A stretch of 64,000 bases of DNA from a virus (IMGVR_UViG_3300046370_000603), one strand, 5' to 3'. Shown: positions 7,391 to 52,030, counted from the first letter of the stretch. The notes: generated by a model not told the origin, from the sequence alone. A program made the numbers and translations.

Positions 7391-8265
7391 ATGTAGGATT
7401 TGATCATAAATTACTGTCTAGTTTCTATCTGTGGTGCGATGATAGATTGTCATATTTTGCTGAAGCATATCAACCAGCTGTTAATCACACTTTTGAGTAT
7501 GTAGATACTATTGATACTCCATTAAATTATAATGCGTTTTACAGTCCTTATAGGCAGTTTATGTGGTCTTCTGACAGAATTGCTGTTCCAGATGAAGTAA
7601 CCATTGATGGCGCCATCGTGAAAGATAAAGATGGTATATATATAGATTACAATAATGGCAGAGTATTAGTAGATACCAATAGCAGACATGGATCTAGTCA
7701 AACATTAAATATTACAGGTGATTTTTCATATAAAACAGTTAATATTTATATTACAGATGATACTGAAGAAAGTGTTATACTAAATAGTGATTTTATTATA
7801 TCACCAACAAATCAAACTTATTTGCAAACCAATGGTGGATTTAGTGATAAAATTTATACAGTTCCAGCAATGTTTATAACATTAGAAAATTCTGAAAATG
7901 TTCCATTCGCAATGGGGGGTATGGACAGTACGGTGTTAAACATGAGATCTGTTATAGTAGCAGACTCTAATTACACTTTAGATGGGGTTCTGTCAATTTT
8001 TAGAGATTCAGCTAGAACGCAATTTGGATTGGTTGAATTCGAAGATTTTCCTTTTGGTGAATTTTCTCATATTAAAAATCATCCCTATAAATATACTGAT
8101 TTAATTGATAAATCTTCAGAATTTGTATTTGTTGAAGAAATTAGATCATCTAAGTTAACAGACAGATCCAGAGAGAGAATTACATCTTCTCAGGATTATA
8201 AAATAGGATTTTTAGATTTCACATTGTGTAAGCCGAGAAATCCCAGAAAAATTTTTCAAAGATAA
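7387..8265 (+). CDS. Putative tail terminator/completion protein
   Basis: 292 aa, immediately upstream of the tail tube gene (synteny only). Confidence 0.45.
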   Translation: MNVGFDHKLLSSFYLWCDDRLSYFAEAYQPAVNHTFEYVDTIDTPLNYNAFYSPYRQFMWSSDRIAVPDEVTIDGAIVKDKDGIYIDYNNGRVLVDTNSRHGSSQTLNITGDFSYKTVNIYITDDTEESVILNSDFIISPTNQTYLQTNGGFSDKIYTVPAMFITLENSENVPFAMGGMDSTVLNMRSVIVADSNYTLDGVLSIFRDSARTQFGLVEFEDFPFGEFSHIKNHPYKYTDLIDKSSEFVFVEEIRSSKLTDRSRERITSSQDYKIGFLDFTLCKPRNPRKIFQR

Positions 8266-8266
8266 A

Positions 8267-8297
8267 TTTCACATTTATTGAAAATTACTGTAAATAA
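8267..8297 (+). promoter_or_regulatory. Putative phage late promoter (TTTCAC-N16-TGTAAATAA)
   Basis: Intergenic, upstream of the tail tube gene; both boxes identical to 1289-1319. Confidence 0.6.
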
Positions 8298-8324
8298 GTA
8301 TATAATAAACCTTTTTTAAAAATT

Positions 8325-9566
8325 ATGGCAACAGACAGAGTAATATATCAAAGTGAATCTCTTTACACTAGTAAGCTTAAAGGAAGCGGAGCTGGTGAAT
8401 TAATCAATGATAGTGATTTGAAAGAGATTAATAGAGTGCAGGATATGAGTTATAATCTAGAAGTAACTCGTACTGACATTAATGAATTTGGACAGCTTGC
8501 TGCTCTTTCAAGAGAAGTTACAGAACCTCCTACAGTTGGATTAGATTTTTCTTACTATCTCACAGATGGAACTCAAGAAAAAAATCTAGGATTCAATGTA
8601 AACGACGCAAGTCAGTTTACTTTCACGAGCGCTGTACCCATGACTAAACAGCTTTTAGATGGATCAAACGATTTTGATGAACTTAACTATTATGTTGTCA
8701 CCGTACCAGAAGGAGAAGATGTTCACGGACAAAGTCCAGTAGCTGCCTCAGATCATGGAGTTATTGGAATTGGTAATGGATTTATTACAAGTTATGGAAT
8801 TTCTGCAGCTGTTGGAGAATTAGCTACTGCTAGTGTTTCTGTAGAAGCTTCTAATATTATGTTTAAAAATGGATTAAACGCAGCATTTGACAACCCAGCT
8901 GTAGATGTTTCATCGGCTACAGGAGCTAGACTCACTAATCAAGTAGATTTCGCCAGCGTGACATCCAGCGATGGAGACATTCAAGTTGACAGCGAAGAAC
9001 TTTTTGCTATTAGACCTGGAGACATCTTTATTGACTTTGATGCTAAAGGATATTTTAATGCAAATGAAGCTGGTAAATTAAATGTTGGAGGAGCTGTTCT
9101 TCCAGGAGTTAATGAAACCACATCAAAAAGCGCTATCCACGTTCAAAACATATCGCTTGATGTACCTGTTGCAAGAAGTCCTCTTAACAGACTTGGCAGC
9201 TTGTACCCATTTAAAAGAAAAGTTGACTTTCCTGTTAACATGACCTTGAGTGTTTCAGCTCTTATGACTGAATTTTCTGAAGGCAGCCTTGATGGATTAC
9301 TCTGCGGTAGCGAGCAAAAACGAGATATCGCAATCGTATTAAACACAAGATGCGGAAAGAAAAACGCTTTGGTTTATGTTATGAGAAACGCTATTCTTGA
9401 CACTCAATCATTCTCGGCTTCGATTGGAGATAACAAAACTGTAGACTTGACATTCTCCTCTCAAGTTGGAGGAGCTAATGATTCCGACAACGGTATTTTC
9501 CTTATCGGAGAAGCAGCTAATAAAGTTGGCTTCGATAGCGGTATTCCTACAACTCCTACAATATAA
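8325..9566 (+). CDS. Major tail tube protein
   Basis: RVQDMSYNLEVTRTDINEFG and a second ..VQNISLDVPVARSPLNRLG.. strand-loop motif typical of tube folds; own promoter and terminator; upstream of chaperones and TMP. Confidence 0.7.
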   Translation: MATDRVIYQSESLYTSKLKGSGAGELINDSDLKEINRVQDMSYNLEVTRTDINEFGQLAALSREVTEPPTVGLDFSYYLTDGTQEKNLGFNVNDASQFTFTSAVPMTKQLLDGSNDFDELNYYVVTVPEGEDVHGQSPVAASDHGVIGIGNGFITSYGISAAVGELATASVSVEASNIMFKNGLNAAFDNPAVDVSSATGARLTNQVDFASVTSSDGDIQVDSEELFAIRPGDIFIDFDAKGYFNANEAGKLNVGGAVLPGVNETTSKSAIHVQNISLDVPVARSPLNRLGSLYPFKRKVDFPVNMTLSVSALMTEFSEGSLDGLLCGSEQKRDIAIVLNTRCGKKNALVYVMRNAILDTQSFSASIGDNKTVDLTFSSQVGGANDSDNGIFLIGEAANKVGFDSGIPTTPTI

Positions 9567-9591
9567 TAGGACTAGTCATATACCACTTAAC

Positions 9592-9621
9592 AAAAAACCT
9601 CGTCAATGGCGAGGTTTTTTT
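9592..9621 (+). terminator. Rho-independent terminator after the tail tube gene
   Basis: AAAAAACCTCGTC-AAT-GGCGAGGTTTTTTT hairpin with T-tract. Confidence 0.85.
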
Positions 9622-9684
9622 GTGTACATTATCATATAATATGTTATAATAAATATATTATATTAAAGGAATAAGGTTACAGTT

Positions 9685-9969
9685 ATGAAAAAAGAAAGGG
9701 AATTGCTTGAATTTCAAGTAGTTAGATCAATTACAAGTTTATATAAATATTTTTTAGGTTTAGTTGAAGAACTGCAAAAGGATCATGATACGCAGTTTGA
9801 TAAGTTAAAACAGGCTATACCTGACCAAGAAAATATATTAAATCAAGCGGAGTATTTAGATGAAGCTCAATTAAATTTTTTGAGAAAAAAAATACTAGAT
9901 TCGGGCAATGATGCCAGGAGGGAATTAATTTCTTATATGGAAAATTTTGATATAAAAATCAAAAAATAA
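9685..9969 (+). CDS. Hypothetical helical protein
   Basis: 94 aa ORF; AAAGGA and an extended -10 (TGTTATAAT, 9642-9650) upstream. Confidence 0.7.
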   Translation: MKKERELLEFQVVRSITSLYKYFLGLVEELQKDHDTQFDKLKQAIPDQENILNQAEYLDEAQLNFLRKKILDSGNDARRELISYMENFDIKIKK

Positions 9970-9984
9970 TTTTATTATATAAGT

Positions 9985-10692
9985 ATGGCAAAAATAAACC
10001 ACGATAAGAAAGCTCTCTTCTTTCACGTTCCTAAAAATGCAGGAACATCTTTAAGTGTATTTTTAAATTCTCAAGGGTGGGAAAATGTAAGATATTCTCC
10101 AATTGATGGAGAGAGAGATGATGTTGCCCCTAGTTTTAGTTACGCGAGGGGATGTTGTCAAAGAATTAAACATAACTTTAAATTAATTGCTAAAAAAAAT
10201 ATCGTAGCAAGCTTGGCAGACTCCAAGCCTATTTATATTGATATAATCAATGATAATGAAAAAAAATGCTACAAAAACATTAATCAAAATACATGGAAAG
10301 ACTATTTCAAATTTGCATTTACTAGAAACCCTTGGGATAGGGTAGTATCTGCTTGGAAAAACCGATCAAGTATTGAAAAGTTTGAAGATTTTGTAAATGT
10401 TTTACCAGCTCCCAAGAATAAGATTGATCTATGTTGGCATACTATGCCTCAGTATGATCATCTTTTTGATGAAGATGATAATCTTATGGTCGATAAGTTA
10501 TATCGAGTGGAAAATTTACAAGATGATTTAAAAGAAATTTGTGATCAATTTCAATTAAATTACACAACTATCGGAAAAATAAATTCATCAAAAAGGAAAC
10601 CGTATTGGGAATACTACACTGATGAAATGGCGGAAAAAATATCAATAATATACAAAAATGATATTGAAAAATTTAACTACAAATATAGGTAA
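9985..10692 (+). CDS. Sulfotransferase family 2 protein (HNK-1/chondroitin-4-ST-like)
   Basis: 5'-PSB FFHVPKNAGTS; 3'-PB FAFTRNPWDRVVSAW; C-terminal YWEYY...YKNDIEKFNY. Confidence 0.9.
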   Translation: MAKINHDKKALFFHVPKNAGTSLSVFLNSQGWENVRYSPIDGERDDVAPSFSYARGCCQRIKHNFKLIAKKNIVASLADSKPIYIDIINDNEKKCYKNINQNTWKDYFKFAFTRNPWDRVVSAWKNRSSIEKFEDFVNVLPAPKNKIDLCWHTMPQYDHLFDEDDNLMVDKLYRVENLQDDLKEICDQFQLNYTTIGKINSSKRKPYWEYYTDEMAEKISIIYKNDIEKFNYKYR

Positions 10693-10700
10693 AAGGAATT

Positions 10701-11552
10701 ATGAATATTACAGAAAAAAACACATTATACTCATTCTCAATTGATTTAAATAAAGAAGTTGAGGAAGAGGTTGAAAAAAAGTCAAAAAGAAAAAACAAGG
10801 AGACTGGAAAAATGGAAGTTATTACATCCAAAGAAAAAGTAACAGTCAAAAAAGATGTTCCATATAAAATTGTGATCAAAAAACCTAATCGAAGCGAACT
10901 CGAAGAAGGTGACATGTTTTACAGTTTGGAACTTAATAAATTTATAAAAATGGGCATGCTTACAAAAGCCATGCTAGCAAAACAATACGGAAACCAAGGC
11001 GGAGTTTGGTCAGAAAAAGAGCAGAAATTGTATTCTGAATTGTTGTATAAAATGCACAGCAAGCAATTAGAGGTTCAGCAGTTTTCTATTTTAGGAGATA
11101 ATGGCAAACTATCAGAAAGGCAACAAGCTAAGCTTGAGCAAGCTGTTAGAGAGATGTCTGAGATAAAAAAAGACTTAACAGAATATGAAATGGTTCAAAA
11201 TTCTTTGTTTGATCATACTGCAGATGTCAAGGCTAGAAATAGAGCTATCATGTGGTACATTCTGCATTTAACTTATTTCGTTGAAGGTGATGCAGATGAC
11301 GCGCCATTTGAAAACATGTTTGAAGGAGATTCTTTTAAAGAAAAATATGAATCTTACGAACAGTCAGAAGAAGAAGGTGATGAGTTATATCAAAAAATTA
11401 TCGATAAGGTATCTTCTATTGTGACTATTTGGTACGTAAGTGGAACTCAAGGTCAAGAAGGTTTAGATGATATTTTTAACGAAATGAAACAACAAAATCA
11501 AGACGAGGATGAACTTGTTGAGCCCACGGAAGAAGTGGAGGAGCCCGCTTAA
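10701..11552 (+). CDS. Putative tail assembly chaperone
   Basis: Acidic helical protein between tube and TMP genes; AAAAGGA upstream. Confidence 0.55.
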   Translation: MNITEKNTLYSFSIDLNKEVEEEVEKKSKRKNKETGKMEVITSKEKVTVKKDVPYKIVIKKPNRSELEEGDMFYSLELNKFIKMGMLTKAMLAKQYGNQGGVWSEKEQKLYSELLYKMHSKQLEVQQFSILGDNGKLSERQQAKLEQAVREMSEIKKDLTEYEMVQNSLFDHTADVKARNRAIMWYILHLTYFVEGDADDAPFENMFEGDSFKEKYESYEQSEEEGDELYQKIIDKVSSIVTIWYVSGTQGQEGLDDIFNEMKQQNQDEDELVEPTEEVEEPA

Positions 11553-11561
11553 TCATGGTTC

Positions 11562-12551
11562 ATGAACGAAAAAGATTTAGATAATTTATTCGTAGAGATT
11601 AAGAGAGGCTTTTCTGTTTTAAAATTCCAGGAAAGCCTTTTTTATGTAAAGCACCCAGGAATAAAAGAAATTGAACTACTCAATAAGGATAGAGCCAATC
11701 TCTTATTGAAAGCTAAAAAAAAAGGTATACCAACAGAAGAAGAGCTTTTTCAAACATTGAATGAAACTGAACAATGGACAAGCGAAGATGAAAAAAAATT
11801 ATCAAACAATCTATTAGAAGTCAAGAATCTTGAGCAAACCATGATGAATCTAATGAAAGATTCTGAAAAAGCTCCTCTTCAAAGCAGGCTTGATGAAATT
11901 AAAAATGAAACCCAAGAGCTGCAAAGCATAAGGAGTAGTCTTATTAGAATAAGTGCTGAAAAATACGCAAACAAAAAAAGTAATGAAAATTTTCTTCAAA
12001 AATCTTTATACAAAGATTCTGAATGCATGCAACATCATTGGACAGAAGATGAGTTTAATGAAATAGATATTATAACTATACAAAATTTATATGATTCTTA
12101 CAATAAACTCATGGAAAAATTTAGTGATAAAAACATTCAGCAAATATCTATATCAGGAATTTTTAAAAGTTTATTAAATCTTTATGATAAAAATATATCT
12201 AATTTTTTTAAAAAACATCCTTTGGATTTAAGTTATTATCAAATTAATTTATTAAATTATGGAAAAATGTTTACAACCATTTTTGAAAATAAAGAAATCC
12301 CAGAAGATATATCAAATGATGCTGAAAAAATAATAAAGTATTTAGAAGAATCAAAAATAAAGAAAAAGAAAGCTCAAAGAGTTTTAGATAAATCAAACAG
12401 TTCTGATGGATTTTCATATGTTGGAGCAACGCGTAAAGACTTAGATAGTATGGGGGTCAAGAAACAAGGAGGGAAAGACATTCATAGCCTAGCTGCAGAC
12501 AAGGGCGGGGAATTGAGTATGGAAGATTTCATGAAGATCCATAAGAAATGA
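11562..12551 (+). CDS. Putative second tail assembly chaperone
   Basis: Helical 329 aa ORF directly before the TMP gene. Confidence 0.5.
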   Translation: MNEKDLDNLFVEIKRGFSVLKFQESLFYVKHPGIKEIELLNKDRANLLLKAKKKGIPTEEELFQTLNETEQWTSEDEKKLSNNLLEVKNLEQTMMNLMKDSEKAPLQSRLDEIKNETQELQSIRSSLIRISAEKYANKKSNENFLQKSLYKDSECMQHHWTEDEFNEIDIITIQNLYDSYNKLMEKFSDKNIQQISISGIFKSLLNLYDKNISNFFKKHPLDLSYYQINLLNYGKMFTTIFENKEIPEDISNDAEKIIKYLEESKIKKKKAQRVLDKSNSSDGFSYVGATRKDLDSMGVKKQGGKDIHSLAADKGGELSMEDFMKIHKK

Positions 12552-12580
12552 GTGTATATCTATAAAAGGCAAAAGGAATC

Positions 12581-15500
12581 ATGAGTGTTGTAAACATACC
12601 TACAGCTGCTACAGGTTATAGGCAGAGTATTATTAGAGACGCGCAAGGAGCTCAGCGCGTAGTTAATCGTATGCAAATGTCTCCAACCCTAAACCCATCT
12701 GGAATCATTCAGCCTTTGGGTAGAATAACTAATTCAGCAAGCGAATTTCAAAAATCAATGGATGCATCTGCAGCCCGTGTTTTTGCTTTTGGCGCCGCAG
12801 TGGGTGTTATTAATGGGGTTAGTGAAGCTTTTAGGGCGATGATAGCAGCTACAGCAGAAGTTGAAAAATCTCTGAAAGATATTCAGGTTGTAATGGAAGC
12901 TTCAAACAGTGCTATGCAAAAATTTGGAGATGGATTATTTGATGTAGCCAGAAATACTGCCACGTCTTTCAAGGATGTAGCTGAGTCAGCCACGGAACTG
13001 GCTAGGCAAGGTTTAAGTGCAGAAGAAACGTTAGCCAGGGTAAATTCAGCCTTAATACTTAGCAGGCTTTCTGGCCTAGATGCTGTCAAATCTACAGAGA
13101 CTTTAACAGCGGCAATCAACTCTTTTAATAAAGAGGGTATAACTCATTCAGAAATTGTAAATAGAATGGCTAATGTTGACGCTGCATTTGCGGTATCTTC
13201 AGCTGATTTAGCAGAAGCGATCTCAAGAGCTGGAGCTGTTGCGCAATCTTCTGGAGTTTCTTTTAATCAGTTAGCAGCTGTAGTTACTGCAGTGCAGCAA
13301 AGAACTGCCAGAGGCGGATCTGTAATAGGTAATGGATTTAAGAGTATTTTTACTAGAATAAAAAGGAGTGGTGTTCGAGAGGCTTTAGAGGAAATAGGAG
13401 TTGCTACTAAAAACAACGACGGAAGCTTTAGGGACTCAATGTCTGTTATTTTGGATTATGCAGATGTATATAAAAATTTGAGCGATAGCCAAAAAGCTTA
13501 CACAGCGGAACAATTAGCTGGAGTTTATCAAATACAAAATTTACAAGCATTAATCCAAGATCTGAATAGTGGATATTCAATATATAATAAAGCTTTAGGA
13601 GTCGCTAATAATACAACAAACGAAGCAATTCAAAGAAATAAAGACTTAAATACAACTCTATCCGCAATGTTTACGCAAACTCAACTAAGCGCTAAAGAAT
13701 TAGCTTCCTCTTTAGGTGAATTGGCGCTATCAGGAAACTTTAAAGAAATATTAACTTTTTTAAATAACTTAGCTCAAAAACTGAATGATCTTTTATCTGA
13801 GGATGGAGGCAATAATTTAGCTAAAAATTTAGTGCGAGGCATTGGTAGTTTTTTAACTGGCCCTGGGATGGTAATACTTGGAGCAGCTTTCCTTAAGATT
13901 TTTGGATTAGTTACGAAATTTGCTAAAGAAGCTTTTTCCGACATCTTAGGTTTAAATAAAGAATCTAAAAGGCAGCAAAGCCTACAAGCTGCAATAGGGC
14001 AAGTATTGAGCACCAACTCTGGAATTTACCAAAAAATATTGGCTGCTGGAAGTAATACCGCAAAACAAGAGCAGATAATACTGAATTTAATAAGGCAAGA
14101 AACAGCTGAAAGAATCAAGCAAGAAGCTCTGATAAAAAGAATTGCAGCTAGTTCGCGATTGGTTGGTATAGGTGCGTCAGAATCTGGATTTGTACCAATG
14201 GGCAAAAAAACAGCTCAAGCAAGAGGCCGAAAAGTTTTAGGCATGTCAAATGGGTTTTTACCCGCTTTTAACAGAGAGCAAAGAGATATAAATACTGGAG
14301 TAGGCGGAGCAAGAAAATCAGATAAACCTGTCTTACTTAAAAACCATAAAATGGGCGGCGGTAAAGTTAATGATGTTGTAGCTCATACTGGTGAATGGAC
14401 TGTTAGGAATTTTAAAGGCTCGGGGGGTACAGCTATTTTTAATAGAGACATGGCATCAGCTTATGGACTGCCTTCTGGTGCAAAAAAAATTAATGCATCT
14501 AGCGGATTTATCCCGAATTTTGCAAAATTTACCAACGAAAGCCATACAATGACATCCGCCCAACTAGGAGGGTCTCAATCTGGCAAGGGGCCAATATCTA
14601 GACTTTCAGATGTGATTGATAGTTTCACTGGAAAAATAAAAGTCGCTAAAATGGATTTTACCAATAAAGACTTAGGTAAAAATGCAACAGATATTGTCAG
14701 AGGAAATAAGGCGCAAAACATACCTGGATTGATAGAGTCCGACCCAAAAGCTTTAAGAGCTGGGAGAACTAAATATAGAGTTAATAAAAAAGCAGTTGGA
14801 ATGCTTAATAAAAGATACGGGAATTTAGTAAAAGATGGTCCTTATGCTGGTATAGTTACAACGGCGAAAAGCATTAGCGAGAGCAAATATAACAATTATA
14901 AAACATCACAAGGTCAGCCTGATCAAATAAAAGATTATTTTAAAAGTGTTACTGGACTTCTAAAGGGTGTTGAAGGAGAGCATCAAAGTATTAAATATTT
15001 AGCTAATAGCGGTTTGAAAAATGTTAAACCTATACAAGGGGCAGGAAGTTTTGATTTATCCGCAAAAAACTCAAAGGGCAAAAAAGCAAAAATGTTTGAA
15101 GTTAAGGCTAAAGAAAAACAAAACGTGGTGGTTGGACTAAAAAAAGCTGCAGATCAATATTTAAAATTAAAAGCAATTACTCAAAAAAACTCAGGGCAAG
15201 ACCCGATTGGCATCAAAAACGGAAGACCAGATAAAATAAATTTAACTTCAGGCAACGCATTGTTTGCTGGGGGCATTAATATGTTAACAGCTGCAGATAC
15301 AAAACTTTCAGCTAATAAAATCAGTCCTCTTTCAGAAGAAAATAAAAAATTCAAACAAGAAGAGGTTTTCAAACAAATAAAAAGTTTTACAAATTTAGAT
15401 TTTAAAGACAGGCAAGCTTTATATAAAGATAAAACTAATGAAGAAATTTGGTCAAAAGCCAGAAAAGCTCTAGAAGATAAACCCAAAGATCAATTAAATT

Positions 15501-18500
15501 TTTACCTCAGAAGTTTGCAGAATAAGAACTCAGAGGAGTCTGAAGTTGTAAAAAATTATTTAAAGAATTTAATAAAGAAAAAAGAAGATCGAAACTCTAA
15601 AGCTCATTCTTTGTTTTTAGATCCTAATTATAATATTCCACCTGGAGGAATAAGAAACGCTGTAAGCGGATTTGTGCCTAATTTTATGGTCAAGAGACCT
15701 GGCATGGGTAAGAGTGGGTCAGTTTATTCTATACAAAGAGGAAAAGATAGAGTTCTGAACGTGTCTCATATAAGAGCTAATGAAGGTGAGTTTGGGTCAA
15801 CTATATATAGAAACTTAATTAATGAAATAGTTAATGCGGCAAAATCAGGAAATCCTTATACTAAAATTGATGCAGGCTCTATTATTGGACCAAGAATACC
15901 AAGAGCTTTATTAGCTGCAAAAAAAATACTAGACCGAAAAAGAATTACTCAAAATATACCAAAGTTAGAACTAGAAGGAGTTCTTGTCCCCAAACAATTA
16001 AGGCGCAGAGTTGAGGAGTTTAGGCAAAATAATTATACTCGTAGTGGCGGAAAGTTTAATACTGAAGATTCGGTTGAATATTTGCCAGGAGAAGAATCAA
16101 AGCTTATAGATTCATTAAGAAGAATTGGGTTAGGTAGAAACGCTCACAAAAGAAAAAACCTTGTAAGGTTGGAAAACTTGCCAATTGGTAAAAACTTTTC
16201 TGACGGATTTATTCCTAATTTTGCAAAAAACGCTTTATCTGAAGCTATTAATAGAGAAAGAGAAGCTGGAGTACCTCAATCAAGAATTAGGGTAGAAAGA
16301 AGTGCTGATTTAGTATCAAAACATAACCCAATGGGATTAGCAGTAACTAATACCAGAGATGAACCACTTGGTTTAAATCAAGGTATCAGAAGAGCAAAGA
16401 TGGAAGGTGTTAATCCCAAAACTTATGGATCAGGTAGAAATACAACTCCAAATTTTGCAGCGGGAGTCCAAACCACCAAAGGATTTTTTACCACACAAAG
16501 AATTAATAGATTAAAAGATGGTGATTTTGCCAAGGATAGCAGCGGAAATAAAGTCTATTTAAATATGTTTTCGCCTGATGATCAAAAGAAAATATTGGGC
16601 TTTAAAGCTACACATTCAAAGGAAAATATAGCTAAAGCAAAACAAGTCTCTAGAGATAAAAAAAATAAAACACCTCTGATTGACGCATCTACTCAAGCAA
16701 CAATGCTTGTAGCAACAAATAATTTAAGAAGAAGAGTAGATACGAAATTCAAAACTGACAAAGGTGACGTAAGATTAAAGTATAGAGTTGAAGGGTTAAA
16801 ACCAGGAGCCCTTAAAAATACCGAGGGGAAAATAAGAGACAGAATTGGTGACTTAATGCTAAAGGAGTCTACCTTTTTAGCGAAAGAAATGTCTGGAGCT
16901 GGAAAATTCGGTATGAATGTTCCGAATGTTACTAGAATGGCAAATGCAGGTAGCATAGGATCTGCCGCTGGATCAATTTTTGAAACAGCCTTGCAGACTG
17001 TAGGGAAAAATAAATTATTTACAAGAAACAATGCTAGCTTCGATATAGCTGGTGCACCTGATGAAAAATTACAAAAACTTTTTGGATATTACACTCCTTA
17101 TGCTGATGCAAAAATAGGTTTAAACCCAGATACAAAAAGAGATTTTAATCAAAAAGTTTTAAAAATTCCTCAAAATGCGGTTCAGTTATCCAAAACTCAA
17201 AAAACTAAACAAGCTGAAGTCTCTAGGGCTACTAGAAAAAGCTATGGACCGCTTACAAGAGCAACAGTAGGTTATATCCCTAATTTTGCAAAACTAACTA
17301 AAAGACAGAAACAAGATTTTGTCAATTCTGGTTTTGCAAAAAATCACAGAGAAGCGAATGCTAAATATAATTTTAGGGATCATCATTACTTAATAGAGAA
17401 AAAACTATCTAATAAAGAATGGTTGAAGCAGAAAGCGTTTGATCGTGACTATGCAAAAATGACTGGTGTTACAAAAAGAAATACAGCGTATTACGGAACT
17501 TATCCAGGATCACAGCGGGATTACCCAGTTCAACAATCAAGGGCTGTAGCGAGAAACGCTAATGTAGGAGCGAGAGGCGCTGCAATGTCAACTGGAATAG
17601 TTAATCAGTTAAATAGCACGGTTCAAGGCTTAGTTAGTAGAGTATCTAATATCGAAAAACAATTAAATATAGAAAATCTATCTAATGGTTATATACCAAA
17701 TTTTGCTAAAAAAGAATCGTTTAAGCAAAAACAAGCAAGACTACGTAAAGCTGTGAAAAACAACCCTAATGATAAGGGAGCTAAAGAAGCTTTACAAAAG
17801 GCTGAGGCCACAAGACGTGGTAATATAAAACAAAACCAAAAAGACAATCAAGAAAGTAAAGATTCTAAAAGAACAAAAGGTTCCACTTACAGCACAGATT
17901 ATAATAAAAAATCTCAAGATCCGTCAGTTTCCAACCAAGACAAACTTAGAGAAATTATGAGATCTGCTCCAGCTGAAAGTATATCGCAAGTAGAAGTCGA
18001 AGAGTTTGAAAGAAATAAAAAAGCTAAAAATTATATTCCTACGGAAGGTGAAATCACTAGAATCTCAAATCGTGTCGAAAGTGTTTCAAGCGCAAACACC
18101 GCTACAAAACTTTCGCAAGCTGTTGCTCAAGCCCAAATCCCTAAAGGAGAGGCTAAAGAGATTATCAAGGCTGTAAATGTTGCTACTGATGGAGATTTTA
18201 AAAAATTGAAAAATCCAGAAGTGGCGAGGGGGGTACAAAACCAATTATCGAAAATTGAAGATAGAATAACTATTGTTAACCGAGCTCAATCCACAATTCA
18301 AGAAATAAGAAAATTAGTACAAGAAGCTAGTGCTCAGAAAATTGATTCAACTAAAAATGGGTGGAAAAACTTTGTAAAGCAGATTGACGCTAAAGCAAGC
18401 ATGAAAAAACTACTTGAAAAATCTCAAGATTTTATCATGAAAGGAGCTGGAAGTGGAAAGAATCCCTATATATCCGCGATACAGCGGCAAAAAAGATATT

Positions 18501-21500
18501 TAAAAAAATATAAATATAAAAGAGAGCCTGATAATTCATTTCAAAGATTTGGAAATGAAATCAAAAAAAGTGCAGAGAGAAGATATGCAGAAATAATGGG
18601 CATCAAACGAGAGGTAGTAAATCCATTTAAATCTATATATAAAGGTGGCACTTCATTCTTGGATTCAGCAGGAGCAAAAGCATTTAAAGGAGTATCAAAA
18701 GGATTAAAATTCATAGGCAGTGCGGGTAAAAGTATCGGTGGTCCATCTGCAAAATATTTAAAAGAAAGTATATCAGGCGTACCTGTTATGATTGGTAATG
18801 ATCAAGTACATCTCAAGCGAGAAGACGCTAAAACTTTTAAAATTAAAAACAGCAATATAAAAGCTGATTTCGCTGCCACCCAGGAAGATTTGATGGATTT
18901 ATTAAGAGGTAGAAAAGCTGGTAGTAACGATGATGTTTTTGAGCTGGAAAAAAAATTAGATAGAATAAAAATTCAAAAACAAGCAATTGACGATTTTTAC
19001 AAAAAATATTCTAAAAAAATTGTACCACAAAAAAAATCTAGAACATTTAACACTAAATCTAGATTCGGACGAAGAAGATTTGCTGGAGGTTTTATTCCAA
19101 ACTTTAGTAAGCTAGCAAACTTAATACTCGCTCACAATAAAAAAGTTCAAGCGTCTAAACCTTTAGGCGATAAAGAATACTCAAGTTTAAGTGGTAGGAT
19201 AGCTGATTTCAATAAAAGAGTTCAGGGCTCAGGTAAAAGCTCAATGAAGAATAGGCCTATAACTTCTTTGGACAGAAAACAGCCTTTCAAGATTAGCAGA
19301 AGAAATAGACTAGAGGACCTAGATAATGTAAAAAGATTCGTAAACTCGGATGAGTTCAAGATGTTAGATAAAAACTTACAAAGTAAACTTTTATTATATT
19401 ACAACAAACGGAAATCTGAAATTGCATCACTGAAGGATTTAGATCCTCAATACCTTAGGCATTCTAGCGATCCAATGTATCAAGGAAAAATTGCAAACAG
19501 GAGTTCTGGTTTTGTTCCTAACTTTAGTAAGTTGGCGAATTTAATACTGACGCACAATAAAAAAGTTCAAGCGTCTAAACCTTTAGGCGATAAAGAATAC
19601 TCAAGTTTAAGTGGTAGGATAGCTGATTTCAATAAAAGAGTTCAGGGCTCAGGTAAAAGCTCAATGAAGAATAGGCCTATAACTTCTTTGGACAGAAAAC
19701 AGCCTTTCAAGATTAGCAGAAGAAATAGACTAGAGGACCTAGATAATGTAAAAAGATTTATGAACTCGGATGAGTTCAAGATGTTAGATAAAAACTTACA
19801 AAGTAAACTTTTATTATATTACAACAAACGGAAATCTGAAATTGCATCACTGAAGGATTTAGATCCTCAATACCTTAGGTATTCTAGCGATCCAATGTAT
19901 CAAGGAAAAATTGCTAATTACGGAAATGGATTTATGCCAAATTTTGCGCTAGATCAGGCTATAGCTAGAGAATCCGAGGCTTTAAAGAAAAGGGGGGTTT
20001 CTTCAAATAAAATAAAAGTAGAAAAAAGTTCATATTTAAAAAGTGCAATGAATCCCATGGGCCTTGCTGTAACGAATGCAGTCGATGAGCCGATGGGTGT
20101 TCAGCAAGGAATCAATAGAGTAAAAAAACAAGGGTTAAATCCAAAAACTTACGGTGTACCTTCATTCGCTTTATCTGCAGAAGAAAAAAGGTTAGAAAAA
20201 GAAAAAGCTGACTTCAAATTAGAGCAAGAAAGTAAACGAGGTAGATTTTTAGGTAGATCACAATTTTTGAATCCTTACGCTGGGCTGGATGATGATGAAG
20301 CTTTTAAACTTAAAAAAGATCAAGAGGCATATAAGGAAAAAACAAAAGGCACTAAAGGTATCAAAAGGTATATGCAGCACGGCATGTCTCCAGAAGGTCA
20401 AAGAAGAATGTCTGTAGTGGGAGGCAAAATGGGTAACGCTGCAATGGGAGCTATGTTTATGGGGCCAATGGCTGCAGAAATGATTCGAGATGGAAGAGAA
20501 GATGCTGCTATAGGCGGAGGAGGAAGAATGGGTATGGATGTAATGAATTCAGCGGCACTAGGAGCTGCTTTTGGACCTTGGGGCATGGCGCTTGGAGCTG
20601 GTTATGGAGTTGGAAAAGGTATAACAGAATTTGGTCAAAGAGATAAGCAAGCTAATACCTTCAAAGCTTTAGAGGGAGCTAAAAAGAAGCTTGATGAAAT
20701 CATGAGTGATACTTCCAGTATGCAAAGTTTTGCTCAGGGAGTTCAAGAGTTGCATGTTGCTACTCAATCAGGTGATTCAAAAGGTATTGTTGCAGCAAAT
20801 AAACAAATCAGGCAATCTATTAATAATATAGCCGACCCAGAGGTTAGAAAGAGAATGCAGTCGCTTGCAAAATCAAGCATGAGCTCTTCAAAAAAATTAG
20901 AGTTGCTAGGTGCAGCAATTGGTAACATGGGCGAAGAAGCTGAAAAAAGATCTGGCATGCTTGCAGCTGGGAAAAGTGCAAATGACGAAAGATTTGCTGG
21001 AGCTAATGGGTTTCAAGATAGTTGGTTCGGAACTGGGGTTCAGGGAACAGTTGCTGGAGCAAAAACAGCGTTTGATTTTTTAACAGGGGGTGGGAATACT
21101 TTCGATTACAACATGAAAACTTTAGGCGGAGAAGATGCTTTTCAAGGAAATCTTGGAGCAGCTAAAGACCAAGCAAGGTCATTAAACCAAGCCTTTAAAG
21201 CAGAAGCTAAAAGAATGGCTAGAGAAAACTTATACACAGATTTATCGAAAGGTAGGGGTCCGATAGCCGCTCCAGAACTCGTAGGAAAAACTAGTGAAGA
21301 AATTGAGCTCATGCGACAAAATGATGTAGGGTTAGACGCAAAATTAAGCCAAGAGCAGGATATAGCGTATGCACAATTGTATAAAGATACAATAAAGCAG
21401 TTTATGAATAATAAAAAATTATCTGATACAGATATAGGAAAAAACTTAAAACAGCTTCCTGGCGGCGAAGAAAGTTTCGAAAATTTTGATCGACAAACTA

Positions 21501-23182
21501 CATTTGAGGATGGTAGTTTGGCAACGTTTGGAGGGGCAATATTAAAAGAATTTGCCGACACAGCTTTAGATGCAAAAGATGGGCTGGAAGGACATAGTGA
21601 AGCTATAAAAGCAGCTATTGAGACTCAACAAAAAATTGTAAACCTCGAACAAAAATTATTGTCTGAATATCAAAATATGCTTCAAGCTCAACAAAATGTT
21701 AATCAAATGATGAGTAGGTTTGCGACCAATCAAGACATTGGAAGTTATAGACAACAAACAGATTCTATGGTAAGAACAAAAGCTAATGATTATTTAACTG
21801 ATAGAAATTATATTGATCCAAGGCAATATATTGCTAGAGATGCAGGAAATCAGAAACGCGACATTATTGCGGAAGGTGAATCAGGAATGCGTCAAGAGTT
21901 CATGAATTTGATTGCAGGAATTGATGTGACTAAAATGTTCAACCCAAGCGGTACTCAAAAAAAAGAGATGGGTATCAAGGATCCTGTTCCAACCAGTGGA
22001 ACTGGGGCATTTCAACAAAAAGTTGACCAACGAGAATCTCAAGCAGACCAACAATTAGCAAGAGCATTAGCTGATTTTGCGGCTCAAAATAAAGACGGAA
22101 ATGTAACTTTAAATGAGATGAGAGGATTTTTGAGCAAGATTGACAGAACGGGGCAGGCAGGAAATAGAATAGCTAGCGCAGCTAAAGATATAGAAAATGC
22201 TACAAGTCAGAAGATGATTGCTCAACTAGAAAGACTTGCAGTAACAACTATGATCAGAGAGGGGGAAGCAGCTTCTGGAAGATTACAACAACAAGGAGGA
22301 AAAAGATTAGGGGATGGAGAAATAAAAGCTGGAGTAGACGCTGCGGTAGAAAGTGATAAAGATATTCTTGATCTCGTTAATAATTATATGAGTCAAGGTT
22401 CTTTGCCTGGAGATAGTATCATAGCAGGTGCAGCAGATAGTATAGATGCCTTTAGGCAATTGGCTGCAGTAATGGGCGTAAGCTCAACTCTATTTACTGG
22501 ACTTAATGATGATACATCAAATTATTTAACAGCTTTAGCGGATGTTAATGGGATGATGGAGCAGTTGGAAAATTTTGATCCTCAAAAAGCATCCGAATTA
22601 AAACCTGTTTTTGAAAAAATTAAATCTAGCTTAGATGCAGATTATAAAACTACTCAAATTGTGGCTGAAGAATTAAAAAGAATGGCTGGTGAAGGAGGAG
22701 TGGATCCAAATTTAGTAAAAGATCCTATAAAAGCTCTTACTGTACAACTAGGAAATTTATGGGGACAGGGATTAAAAATCACTAACTTGCAAGAGCTTAC
22801 AACTCCATTAACACAATTATTAACTAATCAAGACGGCAATGGCGATGGCTCAGGTTCCCCTATAACCCCGTCAGGTGCACCCGTAGGAACAAGCGATGAC
22901 GGTACACCAAAAGGAACTGAGGGCACAGAAGTAGATTTTTCCTCTGCGATAAAAGCTTTAGAGGAATTACCTGGTCAAATAAGCTCGCAATTAAGTGAGT
23001 TGGTTATTAATCATGAAGTTACTGGCGGAATAACTTTTGACTTCAATTCAGATGTTGTGCAAGGAGTCTTAACTCCAGTCATGAGAGATCAATTAAAAAG
23101 TATTTTGCAGGAAGGAGTTATATTAGATTATCTTGCCACAGCGTTAAAGAAAAAAGTTGACCCTCAAGGAGTTTTAGAATAA
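12581..23182 (+). CDS. Tail tape measure protein with a modular central insert (3533 aa)
   Basis: N-terminal TP901/PhageMin_Tail-like core (ATELARQGLSAEETL...LAEAISRAG...GSVIGNGFKSIFTRI); hydrophobic Gly/Ala segments near 13850-13915 and 20430-20620; position after tube and chaperones. Confidence 0.9.
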   Translation: MSVVNIPTAATGYRQSIIRDAQGAQRVVNRMQMSPTLNPSGIIQPLGRITNSASEFQKSMDASAARVFAFGAAVGVINGVSEAFRAMIAATAEVEKSLKDIQVVMEASNSAMQKFGDGLFDVARNTATSFKDVAESATELARQGLSAEETLARVNSALILSRLSGLDAVKSTETLTAAINSFNKEGITHSEIVNRMANVDAAFAVSSADLAEAISRAGAVAQSSGVSFNQLAAVVTAVQQRTARGGSVIGNGFKSIFTRIKRSGVREALEEIGVATKNNDGSFRDSMSVILDYADVYKNLSDSQKAYTAEQLAGVYQIQNLQALIQDLNSGYSIYNKALGVANNTTNEAIQRNKDLNTTLSAMFTQTQLSAKELASSLGELALSGNFKEILTFLNNLAQKLNDLLSEDGGNNLAKNLVRGIGSFLTGPGMVILGAAFLKIFGLVTKFAKEAFSDILGLNKESKRQQSLQAAIGQVLSTNSGIYQKILAAGSNTAKQEQIILNLIRQETAERIKQEALIKRIAASSRLVGIGASESGFVPMGKKTAQARGRKVLGMSNGFLPAFNREQRDINTGVGGARKSDKPVLLKNHKMGGGKVNDVVAHTGEWTVRNFKGSGGTAIFNRDMASAYGLPSGAKKINASSGFIPNFAKFTNESHTMTSAQLGGSQSGKGPISRLSDVIDSFTGKIKVAKMDFTNKDLGKNATDIVRGNKAQNIPGLIESDPKALRAGRTKYRVNKKAVGMLNKRYGNLVKDGPYAGIVTTAKSISESKYNNYKTSQGQPDQIKDYFKSVTGLLKGVEGEHQSIKYLANSGLKNVKPIQGAGSFDLSAKNSKGKKAKMFEVKAKEKQNVVVGLKKAADQYLKLKAITQKNSGQDPIGIKNGRPDKINLTSGNALFAGGINMLTAADTKLSANKISPLSEENKKFKQEEVFKQIKSFTNLDFKDRQALYKDKTNEEIWSKARKALEDKPKDQLNFYLRSLQNKNSEESEVVKNYLKNLIKKKEDRNSKAHSLFLDPNYNIPPGGIRNAVSGFVPNFMVKRPGMGKSGSVYSIQRGKDRVLNVSHIRANEGEFGSTIYRNLINEIVNAAKSGNPYTKIDAGSIIGPRIPRALLAAKKILDRKRITQNIPKLELEGVLVPKQLRRRVEEFRQNNYTRSGGKFNTEDSVEYLPGEESKLIDSLRRIGLGRNAHKRKNLVRLENLPIGKNFSDGFIPNFAKNALSEAINREREAGVPQSRIRVERSADLVSKHNPMGLAVTNTRDEPLGLNQGIRRAKMEGVNPKTYGSGRNTTPNFAAGVQTTKGFFTTQRINRLKDGDFAKDSSGNKVYLNMFSPDDQKKILGFKATHSKENIAKAKQVSRDKKNKTPLIDASTQATMLVATNNLRRRVDTKFKTDKGDVRLKYRVEGLKPGALKNTEGKIRDRIGDLMLKESTFLAKEMSGAGKFGMNVPNVTRMANAGSIGSAAGSIFETALQTVGKNKLFTRNNASFDIAGAPDEKLQKLFGYYTPYADAKIGLNPDTKRDFNQKVLKIPQNAVQLSKTQKTKQAEVSRATRKSYGPLTRATVGYIPNFAKLTKRQKQDFVNSGFAKNHREANAKYNFRDHHYLIEKKLSNKEWLKQKAFDRDYAKMTGVTKRNTAYYGTYPGSQRDYPVQQSRAVARNANVGARGAAMSTGIVNQLNSTVQGLVSRVSNIEKQLNIENLSNGYIPNFAKKESFKQKQARLRKAVKNNPNDKGAKEALQKAEATRRGNIKQNQKDNQESKDSKRTKGSTYSTDYNKKSQDPSVSNQDKLREIMRSAPAESISQVEVEEFERNKKAKNYIPTEGEITRISNRVESVSSANTATKLSQAVAQAQIPKGEAKEIIKAVNVATDGDFKKLKNPEVARGVQNQLSKIEDRITIVNRAQSTIQEIRKLVQEASAQKIDSTKNGWKNFVKQIDAKASMKKLLEKSQDFIMKGAGSGKNPYISAIQRQKRYLKKYKYKREPDNSFQRFGNEIKKSAERRYAEIMGIKREVVNPFKSIYKGGTSFLDSAGAKAFKGVSKGLKFIGSAGKSIGGPSAKYLKESISGVPVMIGNDQVHLKREDAKTFKIKNSNIKADFAATQEDLMDLLRGRKAGSNDDVFELEKKLDRIKIQKQAIDDFYKKYSKKIVPQKKSRTFNTKSRFGRRRFAGGFIPNFSKLANLILAHNKKVQASKPLGDKEYSSLSGRIADFNKRVQGSGKSSMKNRPITSLDRKQPFKISRRNRLEDLDNVKRFVNSDEFKMLDKNLQSKLLLYYNKRKSEIASLKDLDPQYLRHSSDPMYQGKIANRSSGFVPNFSKLANLILTHNKKVQASKPLGDKEYSSLSGRIADFNKRVQGSGKSSMKNRPITSLDRKQPFKISRRNRLEDLDNVKRFMNSDEFKMLDKNLQSKLLLYYNKRKSEIASLKDLDPQYLRYSSDPMYQGKIANYGNGFMPNFALDQAIARESEALKKRGVSSNKIKVEKSSYLKSAMNPMGLAVTNAVDEPMGVQQGINRVKKQGLNPKTYGVPSFALSAEEKRLEKEKADFKLEQESKRGRFLGRSQFLNPYAGLDDDEAFKLKKDQEAYKEKTKGTKGIKRYMQHGMSPEGQRRMSVVGGKMGNAAMGAMFMGPMAAEMIRDGREDAAIGGGGRMGMDVMNSAALGAAFGPWGMALGAGYGVGKGITEFGQRDKQANTFKALEGAKKKLDEIMSDTSSMQSFAQGVQELHVATQSGDSKGIVAANKQIRQSINNIADPEVRKRMQSLAKSSMSSSKKLELLGAAIGNMGEEAEKRSGMLAAGKSANDERFAGANGFQDSWFGTGVQGTVAGAKTAFDFLTGGGNTFDYNMKTLGGEDAFQGNLGAAKDQARSLNQAFKAEAKRMARENLYTDLSKGRGPIAAPELVGKTSEEIELMRQNDVGLDAKLSQEQDIAYAQLYKDTIKQFMNNKKLSDTDIGKNLKQLPGGEESFENFDRQTTFEDGSLATFGGAILKEFADTALDAKDGLEGHSEAIKAAIETQQKIVNLEQKLLSEYQNMLQAQQNVNQMMSRFATNQDIGSYRQQTDSMVRTKANDYLTDRNYIDPRQYIARDAGNQKRDIIAEGESGMRQEFMNLIAGIDVTKMFNPSGTQKKEMGIKDPVPTSGTGAFQQKVDQRESQADQQLARALADFAAQNKDGNVTLNEMRGFLSKIDRTGQAGNRIASAAKDIENATSQKMIAQLERLAVTTMIREGEAASGRLQQQGGKRLGDGEIKAGVDAAVESDKDILDLVNNYMSQGSLPGDSIIAGAADSIDAFRQLAAVMGVSSTLFTGLNDDTSNYLTALADVNGMMEQLENFDPQKASELKPVFEKIKSSLDADYKTTQIVAEELKRMAGEGGVDPNLVKDPIKALTVQLGNLWGQGLKITNLQELTTPLTQLLTNQDGNGDGSGSPITPSGAPVGTSDDGTPKGTEGTEVDFSSAIKALEELPGQISSQLSELVINHEVTGGITFDFNSDVVQGVLTPVMRDQLKSILQEGVILDYLATALKKKVDPQGVLE
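14252..20167 (+). repeat. Dispersed G-[FY]-x-P-N-F peptide motif (8 exact + 3 variant copies) delimiting modules in the TMP
   Basis: GFLPAF 14252, GFIPNF 14504, GFVPNF 15668, GFIPNF 16205, TTPNF 16442, GYIPNF 17270, GYIPNF 17687, GFIPNF 19088, GFVPNF 19508, GFMPNF 19928, GVPSF 20153. Confidence 0.95.
19088..19927 (+). repeat. 420-bp (140-aa) direct tandem duplication inside the TMP
   Basis: 19133-19494 vs 19553-19914 differ at 4 nt by manual comparison; unit boundaries fall on PNF motifs. Confidence 0.97.
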
Positions 23183-51073: not shown

Positions 51074-52030
51074 GTGAACATATTAGTAACAGGCGGATTA
51101 GGCTTTATTGGAAGTAATTTTATAGAATATATATTTAATAAATATGACTATAACATTCACAATCTTGATTCAAAAACTTATGCGGCAAATTACAATAACA
51201 TAAGCGAAAAAATTCAAAAATCAGGAAGATACACTTTATCTATTTGTGATATTAACGACTCTAATCGTGTTAAAAATTTAATTAAAAAACAAAACATTAA
51301 TTACATTGTTAATTTCGCAGCGGAGAGTCATGTAGATAACAGCATAAGCAATTCAACACCTTTTATTCAAACCAACATTAATGGAACACACTCTTTATTA
51401 AGCTTACTTCATGATTGCCCAAATGTCGAGAGGTATCTTCAAGTATCCACAGATGAGGTGTATGGTAGTCTAACGGAAAACGACAATCCCTTTACTGAAA
51501 AAACTCCATTGCGAGCTAATAGTCCTTATTCCGCAAGTAAAGCTAGTGCAGATTTATTGTGTCGTAGTTTTTATGAGACTTTTAATTACCCTATTTTAAT
51601 TACTCGTTGCTCCAACAACTATGGGCCAAACCAACATGAAGAAAAATTAATTCCATTAATGATTAAAAATGCTAAAGCGGGAAAAAAACTTCCTGTTTAT
51701 GGTGATGGCAGGAACATTCGTGACTGGATTCATGTTTCAGATCATTGCTCAGGCATTGATGCAGTTTTACACCAAGGAAAAATTGGTGAAGTTTACAATA
51801 TCGGCGGCGAAAATGAAGTTCGCAATATTGACATTGTCAAAACTATTCTTAAGCTATTAGGTAAAAATGAAAACCAAATAGAATTCGTGAAAGATCGATT
51901 AGGTCACGATTGGCGCTATGCAATTGATAATACTAAAATTAAAAATGAATTAAATTGGTTTCCTAGTGTAAACTTTGAAGAAGGGTTAGAAAATTTATTA
52001 AAACCGAGTGCGTTAAATGAGTCATTTTAA
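51074..52030 (+). CDS. rmlB: dTDP-glucose 4,6-dehydratase
   Basis: LVTGGLGFIG, NFAAESHVD, VSTDEVYG, YSASK, RCSNNYGP, DRLGHDWRY. Confidence 0.93.
   Translation: MNILVTGGLGFIGSNFIEYIFNKYDYNIHNLDSKTYAANYNNISEKIQKSGRYTLSICDINDSNRVKNLIKKQNINYIVNFAAESHVDNSISNSTPFIQTNINGTHSLLSLLHDCPNVERYLQVSTDEVYGSLTENDNPFTEKTPLRANSPYSASKASADLLCRSFYETFNYPILITRCSNNYGPNQHEEKLIPLMIKNAKAGKKLPVYGDGRNIRDWIHVSDHCSGIDAVLHQGKIGEVYNIGGENEVRNIDIVKTILKLLGKNENQIEFVKDRLGHDWRYAIDNTKIKNELNWFPSVNFEEGLENLLKPSALNESF

Follow-up and report, generated by a model that had tools for sequence, protein, structure and literature searches.

What use would a phage have for a tape measure protein (TMP) whose interior is divided by one recurring short peptide into largely dissimilar pieces? 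The question is raised by IMGVR_UViG_3300046370_000603, a 64,000-nucleotide stretch of viral DNA (hereafter the window, with positions counted from its first nucleotide), which encodes a TMP of 3533 amino acids (aa), designated P0001. TMPs are usually seen as passive rulers that later help to form the DNA channel. The plan of this TMP lineage is that of a conserved N-terminal core, a conserved C-terminal membrane or tip part, and a bracketed array of cassettes between the two; this architecture, together with cassette exchange at the junction peptide, is the part of our account that we hold with high confidence. The explanation that we favor for it, in which basic modules are delivered by the TMP and the peptide serves as a site of cutting or handling, has by our estimate a probability of about 0.5.

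Architecture of the tape measure protein and its relatives

P0001 is a TMP of the TP901 family. The PhageMin_Tail family (PF10145) matches aa 123-314 (E value of 4.8e-30; score of 105.4 bits, the curated threshold being 33.2), and its N-terminal part alone is matched by ten PHROG tape-measure families (aa ~40-490, with E values down to 2e-48). The protein probably belongs to an uncultured, long-tailed phage. Among 50,697 phage records, neither tblastn of the insert nor megablast of 22 kb recovered anything; the counterparts of the N-terminal core in cultured phages are only distant TMPs of Firmicute phages, at ~27% identity, and a scan of IMG/VR with the peptide pattern returned no relative.

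Between the N-terminal core and the C-terminal part lies an insert of ~1970 residues punctuated by the pattern G[FY]xPNF, which occurs eight times in strict form (at aa 642, 1030, 1209, 1564, 1703, 2170, 2310, and 2450) and three times in degenerate form (GFLPAFN at aa 558, TTPNFA at aa 1288, and GVPSFA at aa 2525). A preliminary description of the window had likewise counted eleven copies, eight of them exact, and the limits that it set to the array are exact, 14252 being the base at which the first copy begins and 20167 the final base of the F codon in the last. Successive copies are 84, 388, 179, 78, 277, 139, 467, 140, 140, and 74 aa apart, in agreement with the ten segments of ~70 to 460 aa given there. 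The tripeptide PNF is found nine times in P0001, compared with an expectation of 0.29 (2000 shuffles; maximum, 3). The 327 distinct instances in 67 TMPs give the family consensus A-[AS]-x-G-[FY]-[IV]-P-N-F-A, in which P and F are conserved in 100% of instances, G in 96%, and N in 91%. The motif codons differ freely at synonymous sites; therefore, conservation acts on the protein and not on the DNA. Every copy of P0001 that was modeled with AlphaFold2 lies in a linker whose predicted local distance difference test (pLDDT) value is below ~60, and a conserved peptide in such linkers, if these are as flexible as predicted, is what would be expected of a short linear motif that another factor recognizes.

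Other identities for the motif were considered and set aside. Self-cleavage of the intein-like or Asn-cyclization kind finds no nucleophile at position +1, and Ser or Ala takes the place of Asn in 7% of copies. The Prp/L27-type site of staphylococcal phage 80alpha, cut between F and A, agrees with the motif only at P1, P1', and P4, and the docking peptides of the clamp, SSB-tail, and FtsZ-tail types share with it only an "IPxF" likeness; both ideas were dropped.

The insert is as rich in Lys and Arg as first described: K and R make up 19.2% of its residues and D and E 9.9% (net charge of +183), and the isoelectric point (pI) is 9.9 to 10.5 in all ten segments, compared with 5.1 for the C-terminal 1003 aa. 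Most segments are unrelated to one another, again as described, but three small ones (aa 558-648, 1216-1293, and 2457-2530) are homologous and represent one domain (hhalign probability of 97.5%), which we call the bracket domain and which comes in two types. Type A is situated at aa ~545-640 in ~97 TMPs, and type B immediately precedes the C-terminal part in ~99 TMPs, many of them shorter marine TMPs of 1100 to 1900 aa; R-E, N-P-x-G, and N-x-x-D-E-P-x-G are invariant in type B (alignment A6). The reported duplication of one segment is exact in its motif-to-motif register but not in its sequence, since modules 22a and 22b are identical at 132 of 140 aa and the underlying tandem repeat (19088-19914; unit of 420 bp) shows 96% nucleotide matches, with no indels.

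A search with the insert recovered at least 66 relatives from JGI, ENA, NCBI, and Logan assemblies, all of them TMPs and ranging from 1969 to 5756 aa. PF10145 is present in 65 of these 66, each contains at least one strict copy of the motif (most contain several), and the number of copies rises with the length of the TMP (r = 0.80). When the 67 proteins are divided at the motif, 413 segments result, which group into 124 families: the N-terminal core is near universal (66/67), the C-terminal families are few, and the content and order of the interior vary even among close relatives (e.g., modules 10 and 3 stand in reverse order in P0005 and P0010). The preliminary description had predicted conserved ends, variable module sets, and breakpoints at PNF, and had regarded conserved and collinear modules as grounds for giving up its proposal. 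We find that the ends are collinear, that module order is permuted, and that 63% of the ends of BLASTP high-scoring segment pairs inside the insert (n = 354) fall within 12 aa of a motif, compared with 12.6% for random positions, a count made independently of the motif-based segmentation and to which small domains starting or ending at motifs contribute in part. Breakpoints thus cluster at the motif, but the variable synonymous sites speak against the proposed recombination anchor at the DNA level, at least in any strong sense, and exchange is probably seen at the motif since it is tolerated there.

The origin of the window in a metagenome, JGI 3300048029, the 420-bp tandem repeat, and a relative that is broken into open reading frames (ORFs) (P0068, in locus L001) could all suggest that the array is an artifact, produced by chimeric assembly or by the collapse of a repeat, or else a gene in decay. 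This is hardly credible given that the 3533-aa product is recorded identically on two contigs (of 72 kb and 159 kb), that more than 66 relatives have the same plan in intact frames of 2000 to 5756 aa, and that invariant residues are kept within the modules.

TABLE 1 Positions of P0001, its parts, and other genes in the window
Feature	Position	Strand	Basis
TMP gene P0001, 3533 aa	12581..23182	+	Single open frame; PF10145; PHROG TMP families; same product on two contigs
N-terminal TP901-type core, aa 1-557	12581..14251	+	PF10145 at aa 123-314; BLASTP collinear; segment family 0 in 66/67 TMPs
Small bracket domain A, aa 558-648, beta-rich, between GFLPAFN and GFIPNFA	14252..14524	+	AlphaFold2 pLDDT 91-94; alignment A5
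Module 1, aa 649-1036, PD-(D/E)xK-like alpha/beta (~650-915) and helical tail, end GFVPNF	14525..15688	+	AlphaFold2 pLDDT 94-98
Module 10, aa 1037-1215, alpha/beta, end GFIPNFA	15689..16225	+	AlphaFold2 pLDDT 55-83; seven family members
Small bracket domain B copy 1, aa 1216-1293, end degenerate TTPNFA	16226..16459	+	Alignment A6; hhalign to domain A
Module 3, aa 1294-1570, N-terminal alpha/beta, then FETA...FDI...ADAK, end GYIPNFA	16460..17290	+	AlphaFold2; 19-sequence alignment
Module 21, aa 1571-1709, helical, end GYIPNFA	17291..17707	+	AlphaFold2 pLDDT 82-90 in part; three family members
Module 33, aa 1710-2176, long helices, 22% K+R, end GFIPNFS	17708..19108	+	AlphaFold2 at low to medium confidence; composition
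Modules 22a and 22b, aa 2177-2316 and 2317-2456, helical tandem duplicate, motif ends	19109..19948	+	Repeat; AlphaFold2 pLDDT 80-95 (copy a)
Small bracket domain B copy 2, aa 2457-2530, end degenerate GVPSFA	19949..20170	+	Alignment A6; final array module in most relatives
C-terminal part, aa 2531-3533, Gly/Met-rich hydrophobic stretch, then acidic helical-looking region	20171..23182	+	Translation; pI 5.1; collinear with relatives
Motif copy GFIPNFA	14504..14524	+	Pattern G[FY]xPNF
Other strict motif copies	starts 15668, 16205, 17270, 17687, 19088, 19508, 19928	+	
Degenerate motif copies	14252-14272, 16442-16459, 20153-20170	+	
ORF of 594 aa, neck region	4556-6340	+	No family match
Family-2 sulfotransferase, 235 aa	9985-10692	+	PF03567, E 4e-14; PHROG galactose-3-O-sulfotransferase
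ORFs of 283 and 329 aa, chaperone position	10701-11552 and 11562-12551	+	
Class I ribonucleotide reductase large subunit with ATP-cone	38932-41382	+	E 5e-169
Three NAD-dependent sugar epimerase/dehydratase genes	51074-52030 and 58199-60068	+	GDP-mannose 4,6-dehydratase-like, E 1e-83

Predicted folds and enzyme signatures of the modules

Two AlphaFold2 models cover the array through the first copy of module 22, one of aa 556-1300 (88-row alignment) and one of aa 1287-2320 (29 rows). Domain A is predicted to be beta-rich with pLDDT above 90, aa ~650-915 to form an alpha/beta domain (pLDDT of 94 to 98), aa 920-1008 to be helical, and aa 1047-1180 to be alpha/beta at lower confidence. In module 3, aa 1294-1420 are modeled as alpha/beta (pLDDT of 83 to 92) and aa 1474-1514 fall below 50; aa 1571-2316 (modules 21, 33, and 22) are modeled as helical, such modules being mixed with compact domains by way of flexible linkers.

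In module 1, residues G796, E800, D825, E840, and K842 show no variation across 23 sequences that share 17 to 48% identity, and their E...D...ExK layout follows the catalytic order E...D...(D/E)xK of the PD-(D/E)xK superfamily. The family profile has a sole PDB hit, to the Holliday-junction resolvase Hjc (1gef; E value of 0.014), which extends over the catalytic region. Weak matches come from Foldseek (a row for Hjc, with a probability of 0.69), VIA-align (the FAN1 nuclease domain; Z of 5.5), an Atlas shape search (four Mrr_cat clusters; TM by row of 0.32 to 0.48), and a language-model search (Tox-REase-7; 0.87). All of these agree, and, judged from the alignment and the model, module 1 (aa ~650-915) is likely to have a fold of the PD-(D/E)xK type. 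Two segments had originally been thought to look like nucleases: the claim is supported for module 1, by its invariant residues and its Hjc match, and for module 3 it is backed neither by the model nor by a profile, since FETA...FDI...ADAK, with an invariant E, D, and A-K (19 sequences), lies in a stretch of low pLDDT and module 3 has no PDB match by profile or by fold.

Structural matches to module 10 are weak and either STAS-like or editing-domain-like (Z of 5.4 to 7.2). Foldseek searches of PDB and BFVD gave no row at an E value of ≤0.001 for either model, a VIA-wide structure search gave nothing at a Z of ≥8, and the profiles of bracket domains A and B found nothing usable among PDB sequences. 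The metal site D-x-D-x-D of two-barrel RNA polymerases (RNAPs) occurs nowhere in P0001, which also lacks a Pfam match to an RNAP and in which Pfam detects no lytic (cell-wall hydrolase) domain.

In two relatives, P0038 and P0062, GNAT acetyltransferase domains that score above the Pfam threshold lie within modules bounded by the motif. The Pfam assignments for 86 representative interior modules are to GNAT (three modules), AAA_33 (one), and the photosystem II family PSII_Pbs27 (one, which is probably spurious). Weak Walker-A or P-loop matches (AAA_23, AAA_30, and AAA_16; E values of 0.001 to 0.003) are also present in two further module families of relatives (P0051:872-1035 and P0039:848-1229).

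Possible roles of the modules: delivery to the host, measurement, or assembly

The lumen of the siphophage tail tube is ~4 nm wide. When a 265-aa fold, carried once per chain by three or six chains, is set against this width, we infer that the modules would have to travel in a non-native state; the conserved catalytic-type residues of module 1, in turn, suggest a task beyond the tube. The tail channel is given as 3 to 4 nm (PMC12617516), and TMPs leave the tail ahead of the DNA in infection (PMC10770324; PMC12617516). In the explanation that we favor, the modules would ride inside the tube in the non-native state, exit with the TMP ahead of the DNA, and then take up their folds and do their work in the envelope or the cytoplasm of the host, for instance by binding or cutting DNA in the case of P0001 and by acetylation in the case of relatives. 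The motif would be a site of maturation cleavage or handling, cut at or beside the F-A bond after tail assembly, by analogy with the cut in the TMP of phage T5, and the cassettes would be freed as separate proteins after cutting. That the modules act after ejection, by analogy with gp96 of phage P23-45, seems to us marginally the better bet, and cutting at the motif, by analogy with T5 pb2, is possible, with the balance tilting against it. A fuller version, which we consider unlikely, is a virion polyprotein in which every PNF/A junction (the slash marks the cut) is severed after assembly to give a train of at least eight basic proteins, a nuclease-type enzyme included, that is fired before the genome. 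Cutting in that version might fall to a host protease, the kind of enzyme suspected in T5, or to the bracket domain itself with its invariant residues, and the lineage would renew its arsenal through cassette swaps at the junction peptide.

Precedents for enzymes that travel with a TMP or with phage DNA are of several kinds. In Thermus phage P23-45, gp96 is a 5002-aa TMP fused to a virion RNAP that is proposed to be injected and to transcribe the pre-early genes, a published case of a TMP that would bring a working enzyme into the host, and it goes with an extremely long tail, that of the relative P74-26 being nearly 1 μm (PMC10770324). Both P0001 and gp96 are thus giant TMPs with a large globular enzyme (a putative one in P0001) in the same polypeptide, near its N-terminal side, but gp96 has a single enzyme and no array, and no fence peptide or cassette exchange is described for it, nor is processing in the sections of the report consulted (PMC10770324). 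The likeness is one of principle, an enzyme riding on a TMP, and not one of family, as P0001 has no RNAP signature. The polyvalent proteins of Iyer et al. (2017) are head-packaged or conjugation-transferred, and that paper never mentions tape measure proteins; these are very large mosaics of shuffled effector domains (nucleases, GNATs, and others) that are codelivered with DNA and for which processing into units, by an embedded zincin-like peptidase, was proposed (PMC5512222). No such peptidase was found in P0001 or in the modules, and the hallmark domains of polyvalent proteins are absent from P0001, which instead has a conserved linear motif at every junction. Viewed as a mosaic of that kind, the array shows shuffling, and its recognized activities are few (GNAT in 3/86 modules, one AAA_33, and the PD-(D/E)xK-like family).

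TMPs with embedded cell-wall hydrolases are represented by YomI/CwlP of phage SPbeta and by the motifs of mycobacteriophage TM4. As in YomI/CwlP, the putative enzyme domains of P0001 are inside a TP901-type TMP, and TMPs of the SPbeta group provide some of the closest matches from cultured phages to its N-terminal core (27% identity); unlike in P0001, the domains of the SPbeta/TM4 type are peptidoglycan hydrolases, one or two per protein, with a role in penetration and without a fence motif. Neither full-text literature searches nor the polyvalent-protein paper yielded a description of a PNF-fenced cassette array in a TMP. The preliminary description knew of no system with this architecture, which holds true of the array in the literature searched, but P23-45 (PMC10770324) and the polyvalent proteins (PMC5512222) are partial precedents; the array extends both TMP-fused virion enzymes and polyvalent injected proteins and adds to them a series of cassettes with a single junction peptide.

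Cutting of TMPs is known from phages such as T5 and lambda. In T5, the TMP pb2 is cleaved behind R1127 and its two pieces remain in the tail, although the cleaved piece was long assumed to leave it (PMC10038345). In the T5 record (pb2 at L006 17122-20781, minus strand), the site reads NANSFVPR/AEGG, and [FY][IVL]P occurs in pb2 (1219 aa) at this site only, with N-A-N-S before it (0.09 occurrences are expected for [FY][IV]P). The T5 site resembles N-A-[AS]-x-G-[FY]-[IV]-P-N-F/A at the peptide level only, and we regard this as a likeness between sequences and not as shown homology. Lambda gpH is cut after tail assembly into gpH* and gpHC, the exact site not being mapped, and three of the six copies of gpHC may be lost (PMC12617516). 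Because lambda cuts its TMP after assembly, being measured and being cut are compatible properties, and tail length alone, which had been suggested as a test, would therefore not separate the readings. pb2 and gpH are like the P0001 of the favored explanation in that they are cut after assembly and a functional C-terminal piece stays in the tail, and they differ in having one cut, as opposed to eleven candidate sites. By eye, a pattern "A-x-G-G ... G-E-x-x-V" is common to T5, lambda, and domain A: pb2 (aa 1120-1150) continues after the R1127 cut with AEGG...MGEHGTEVVTP, FHFATGG...GIVHRGEFVF stands in gpH close to the region of the unmapped cut, and domain A of P0001 has GGGK...VVAHTGEWTV; profiles did not confirm this pattern.

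Alternatively, the TMP may never be cut, such that all 3533 aa set a tail of ~500 nm and the motif is a structural staple, which we judge to be rather unlikely. The motif strand would keep the TMP chains in register or dock them to the tube wall or to an assembly chaperone, and the basic modules would line the tube and, after ejection and still fused, form or extend a trans-envelope conduit and hold the leading end of the DNA. The lumen of the tail tube is negatively charged in phages with solved tubes, and the fact that modules are basic whatever their family suggests a shared physical constraint. That the motif can be a structural strand is indicated by type A domains, which in most relatives contain two extra internal copies, IPNFAFGGG and VPNYAGGG (alignment A5), at positions equivalent to beta-strands in the P0001 model; the copies between modules, however, are in disordered linkers and not in packed strands, and their spacing, at 74 to 467 aa, is irregular. 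An uncut ruler would also suit the helical half of the insert, the restriction of tested modules to TMPs, and the case of P23-45, whose 5002-aa TMP accompanies a very long tail and whose RNAP is not reported to be cut off. It is harder to reconcile with a confident 265-aa domain that has catalytic-type residues and several copies of which would be difficult to accommodate within a 4-nm lumen, or with the resemblance of the motif to the mapped T5 cut site.

A further alternative has the modules active ahead of tail assembly or in its course, where they could help as built-in chaperones or spacers to make a very long tail and might be trimmed at the motif, so as to be absent from the virion. We consider this improbable: the cleaved T5 piece, whose assumed departure would have been a parallel, was actually found in the tail, and the fast turnover of cassettes among close relatives, along with GNAT and nuclease-type signatures, fits host conflict better, even if the modules are TMP specific and lambda may lose half of its gpHC copies (three of six).

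Delivery of basic modules, with the motif as a cut or handling site, has several results weighing against it. In a word-based search restricted to shorter proteins, all hits to modules 1, 10, and 3 were in other TMPs, and an exhaustive HMMER search of 1.84 billion representatives with the module 1 profile returned 29 hits, all of them giant TMPs or fragments thereof (the short hits all carry flanking motifs, bracket domains, or frameshifted tails). Being confined to TMPs, the tested modules are therefore not recently captured free-standing effectors, and they could serve the tail itself. About half of the insert (aa 1571-2456) is helical in the models, as in an ordinary ruler; plain extended helix throughout the modules had been named in advance as evidence against delivery, and several modules depart from it in being confidently predicted as alpha/beta. 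All structural matches are under the noise marks of the respective tools (Z below 8; Foldseek E value above 0.001), the signature stretch of module 3 has a pLDDT below 50, and ~95% of representative modules have no Pfam family. With regard to cutting, no known peptidase family was detected in P0001 at an E value of ≤1 or in the 86 representative modules at an E value of ≤0.001, and bracket profiles A5 and A6 did not detect the cut regions of T5 and lambda. The motif is found nowhere else in the six frames of the 64-kb window, and for this reason the idea of a virion protease site common to head proteins was dropped.

The distribution of the array suggests that a whole uncultured lineage (at least 66 giant TMPs, with ~100 sharing the bracket domain) may use the TMP as an expandable carrier, with more than 100 families of mostly unknown modules and a single junction peptide that is conserved. 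Should this peptide be a processing site, it would offer a simple sequence rule for finding premade, injected phage proteins in metagenomes, and these would be candidates for antidefense and host takeover functions that act before phage gene expression. A physical question also arises, i.e., how domains that fold compactly could be stored in, and pushed through, a 4-nm tube.

Gene neighborhood and other features of the window

The order and sizes of genes around the TMP (ORFs of 413, 94, 235, 283, and 329 aa upstream and of 1203, 566, and 794 aa downstream) fit a tail operon, and the same order is present in the related locus L001 (ENA ERZ28548097, a 199.8-kb contig). None of the neighbors matches a structural family in Pfam or PHROG, leaving the tube protein, the chaperones, and any protease without a candidate. 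The 283- and 329-aa ORFs, which occupy the chaperone position and match no family, are in one reading frame, with one stop codon and 9 nucleotides between them, and may be separate genes or a read-through pair replacing the usual -1 frameshift. A complex prediction combining the two upstream ORFs with domain B scored 0.00, which is evidence neither for nor against an interaction. In L001, the TMP (7600-14813) is called as six ORFs of 416, 395, 547, 450, 381, and 211 aa, which probably reflect long-read indel errors and not a naturally split gene; P0068, the one short hit that covers a module well, was rejected as a free-standing homologue on the grounds that it is a piece of this TMP, split into several ORFs on a long-read, pilon-polished contig.

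A scan of species genomes for a host produced only three contigs, in metagenome-assembled genomes (MAGs) from discordant phyla (Thermodesulfobacteriota, Verrucomicrobiales, and Flavobacteriaceae). Because these MAG contigs are discordant, and are probably misbinned phage DNA, they allow no host call.

The sulfotransferase gene is embedded among the tail genes, two genes ahead of that for the TMP, a position at which it is not found in L001. Together with the ribonucleotide reductase and the sugar epimerase/dehydratase genes (Table 1), it suggests that the phage makes or modifies glycans. At the far end of the window (60001-64000), long overlapping ORFs without a Pfam match occupy both strands (60117-62501 and 62505-63998 on the plus strand; 60713-61765 and 62840-63913 on the minus strand), and this interval has a GC content of 0.39 to 0.45, compared with ~0.32 elsewhere, and a GC skew of -0.35 to -0.41.

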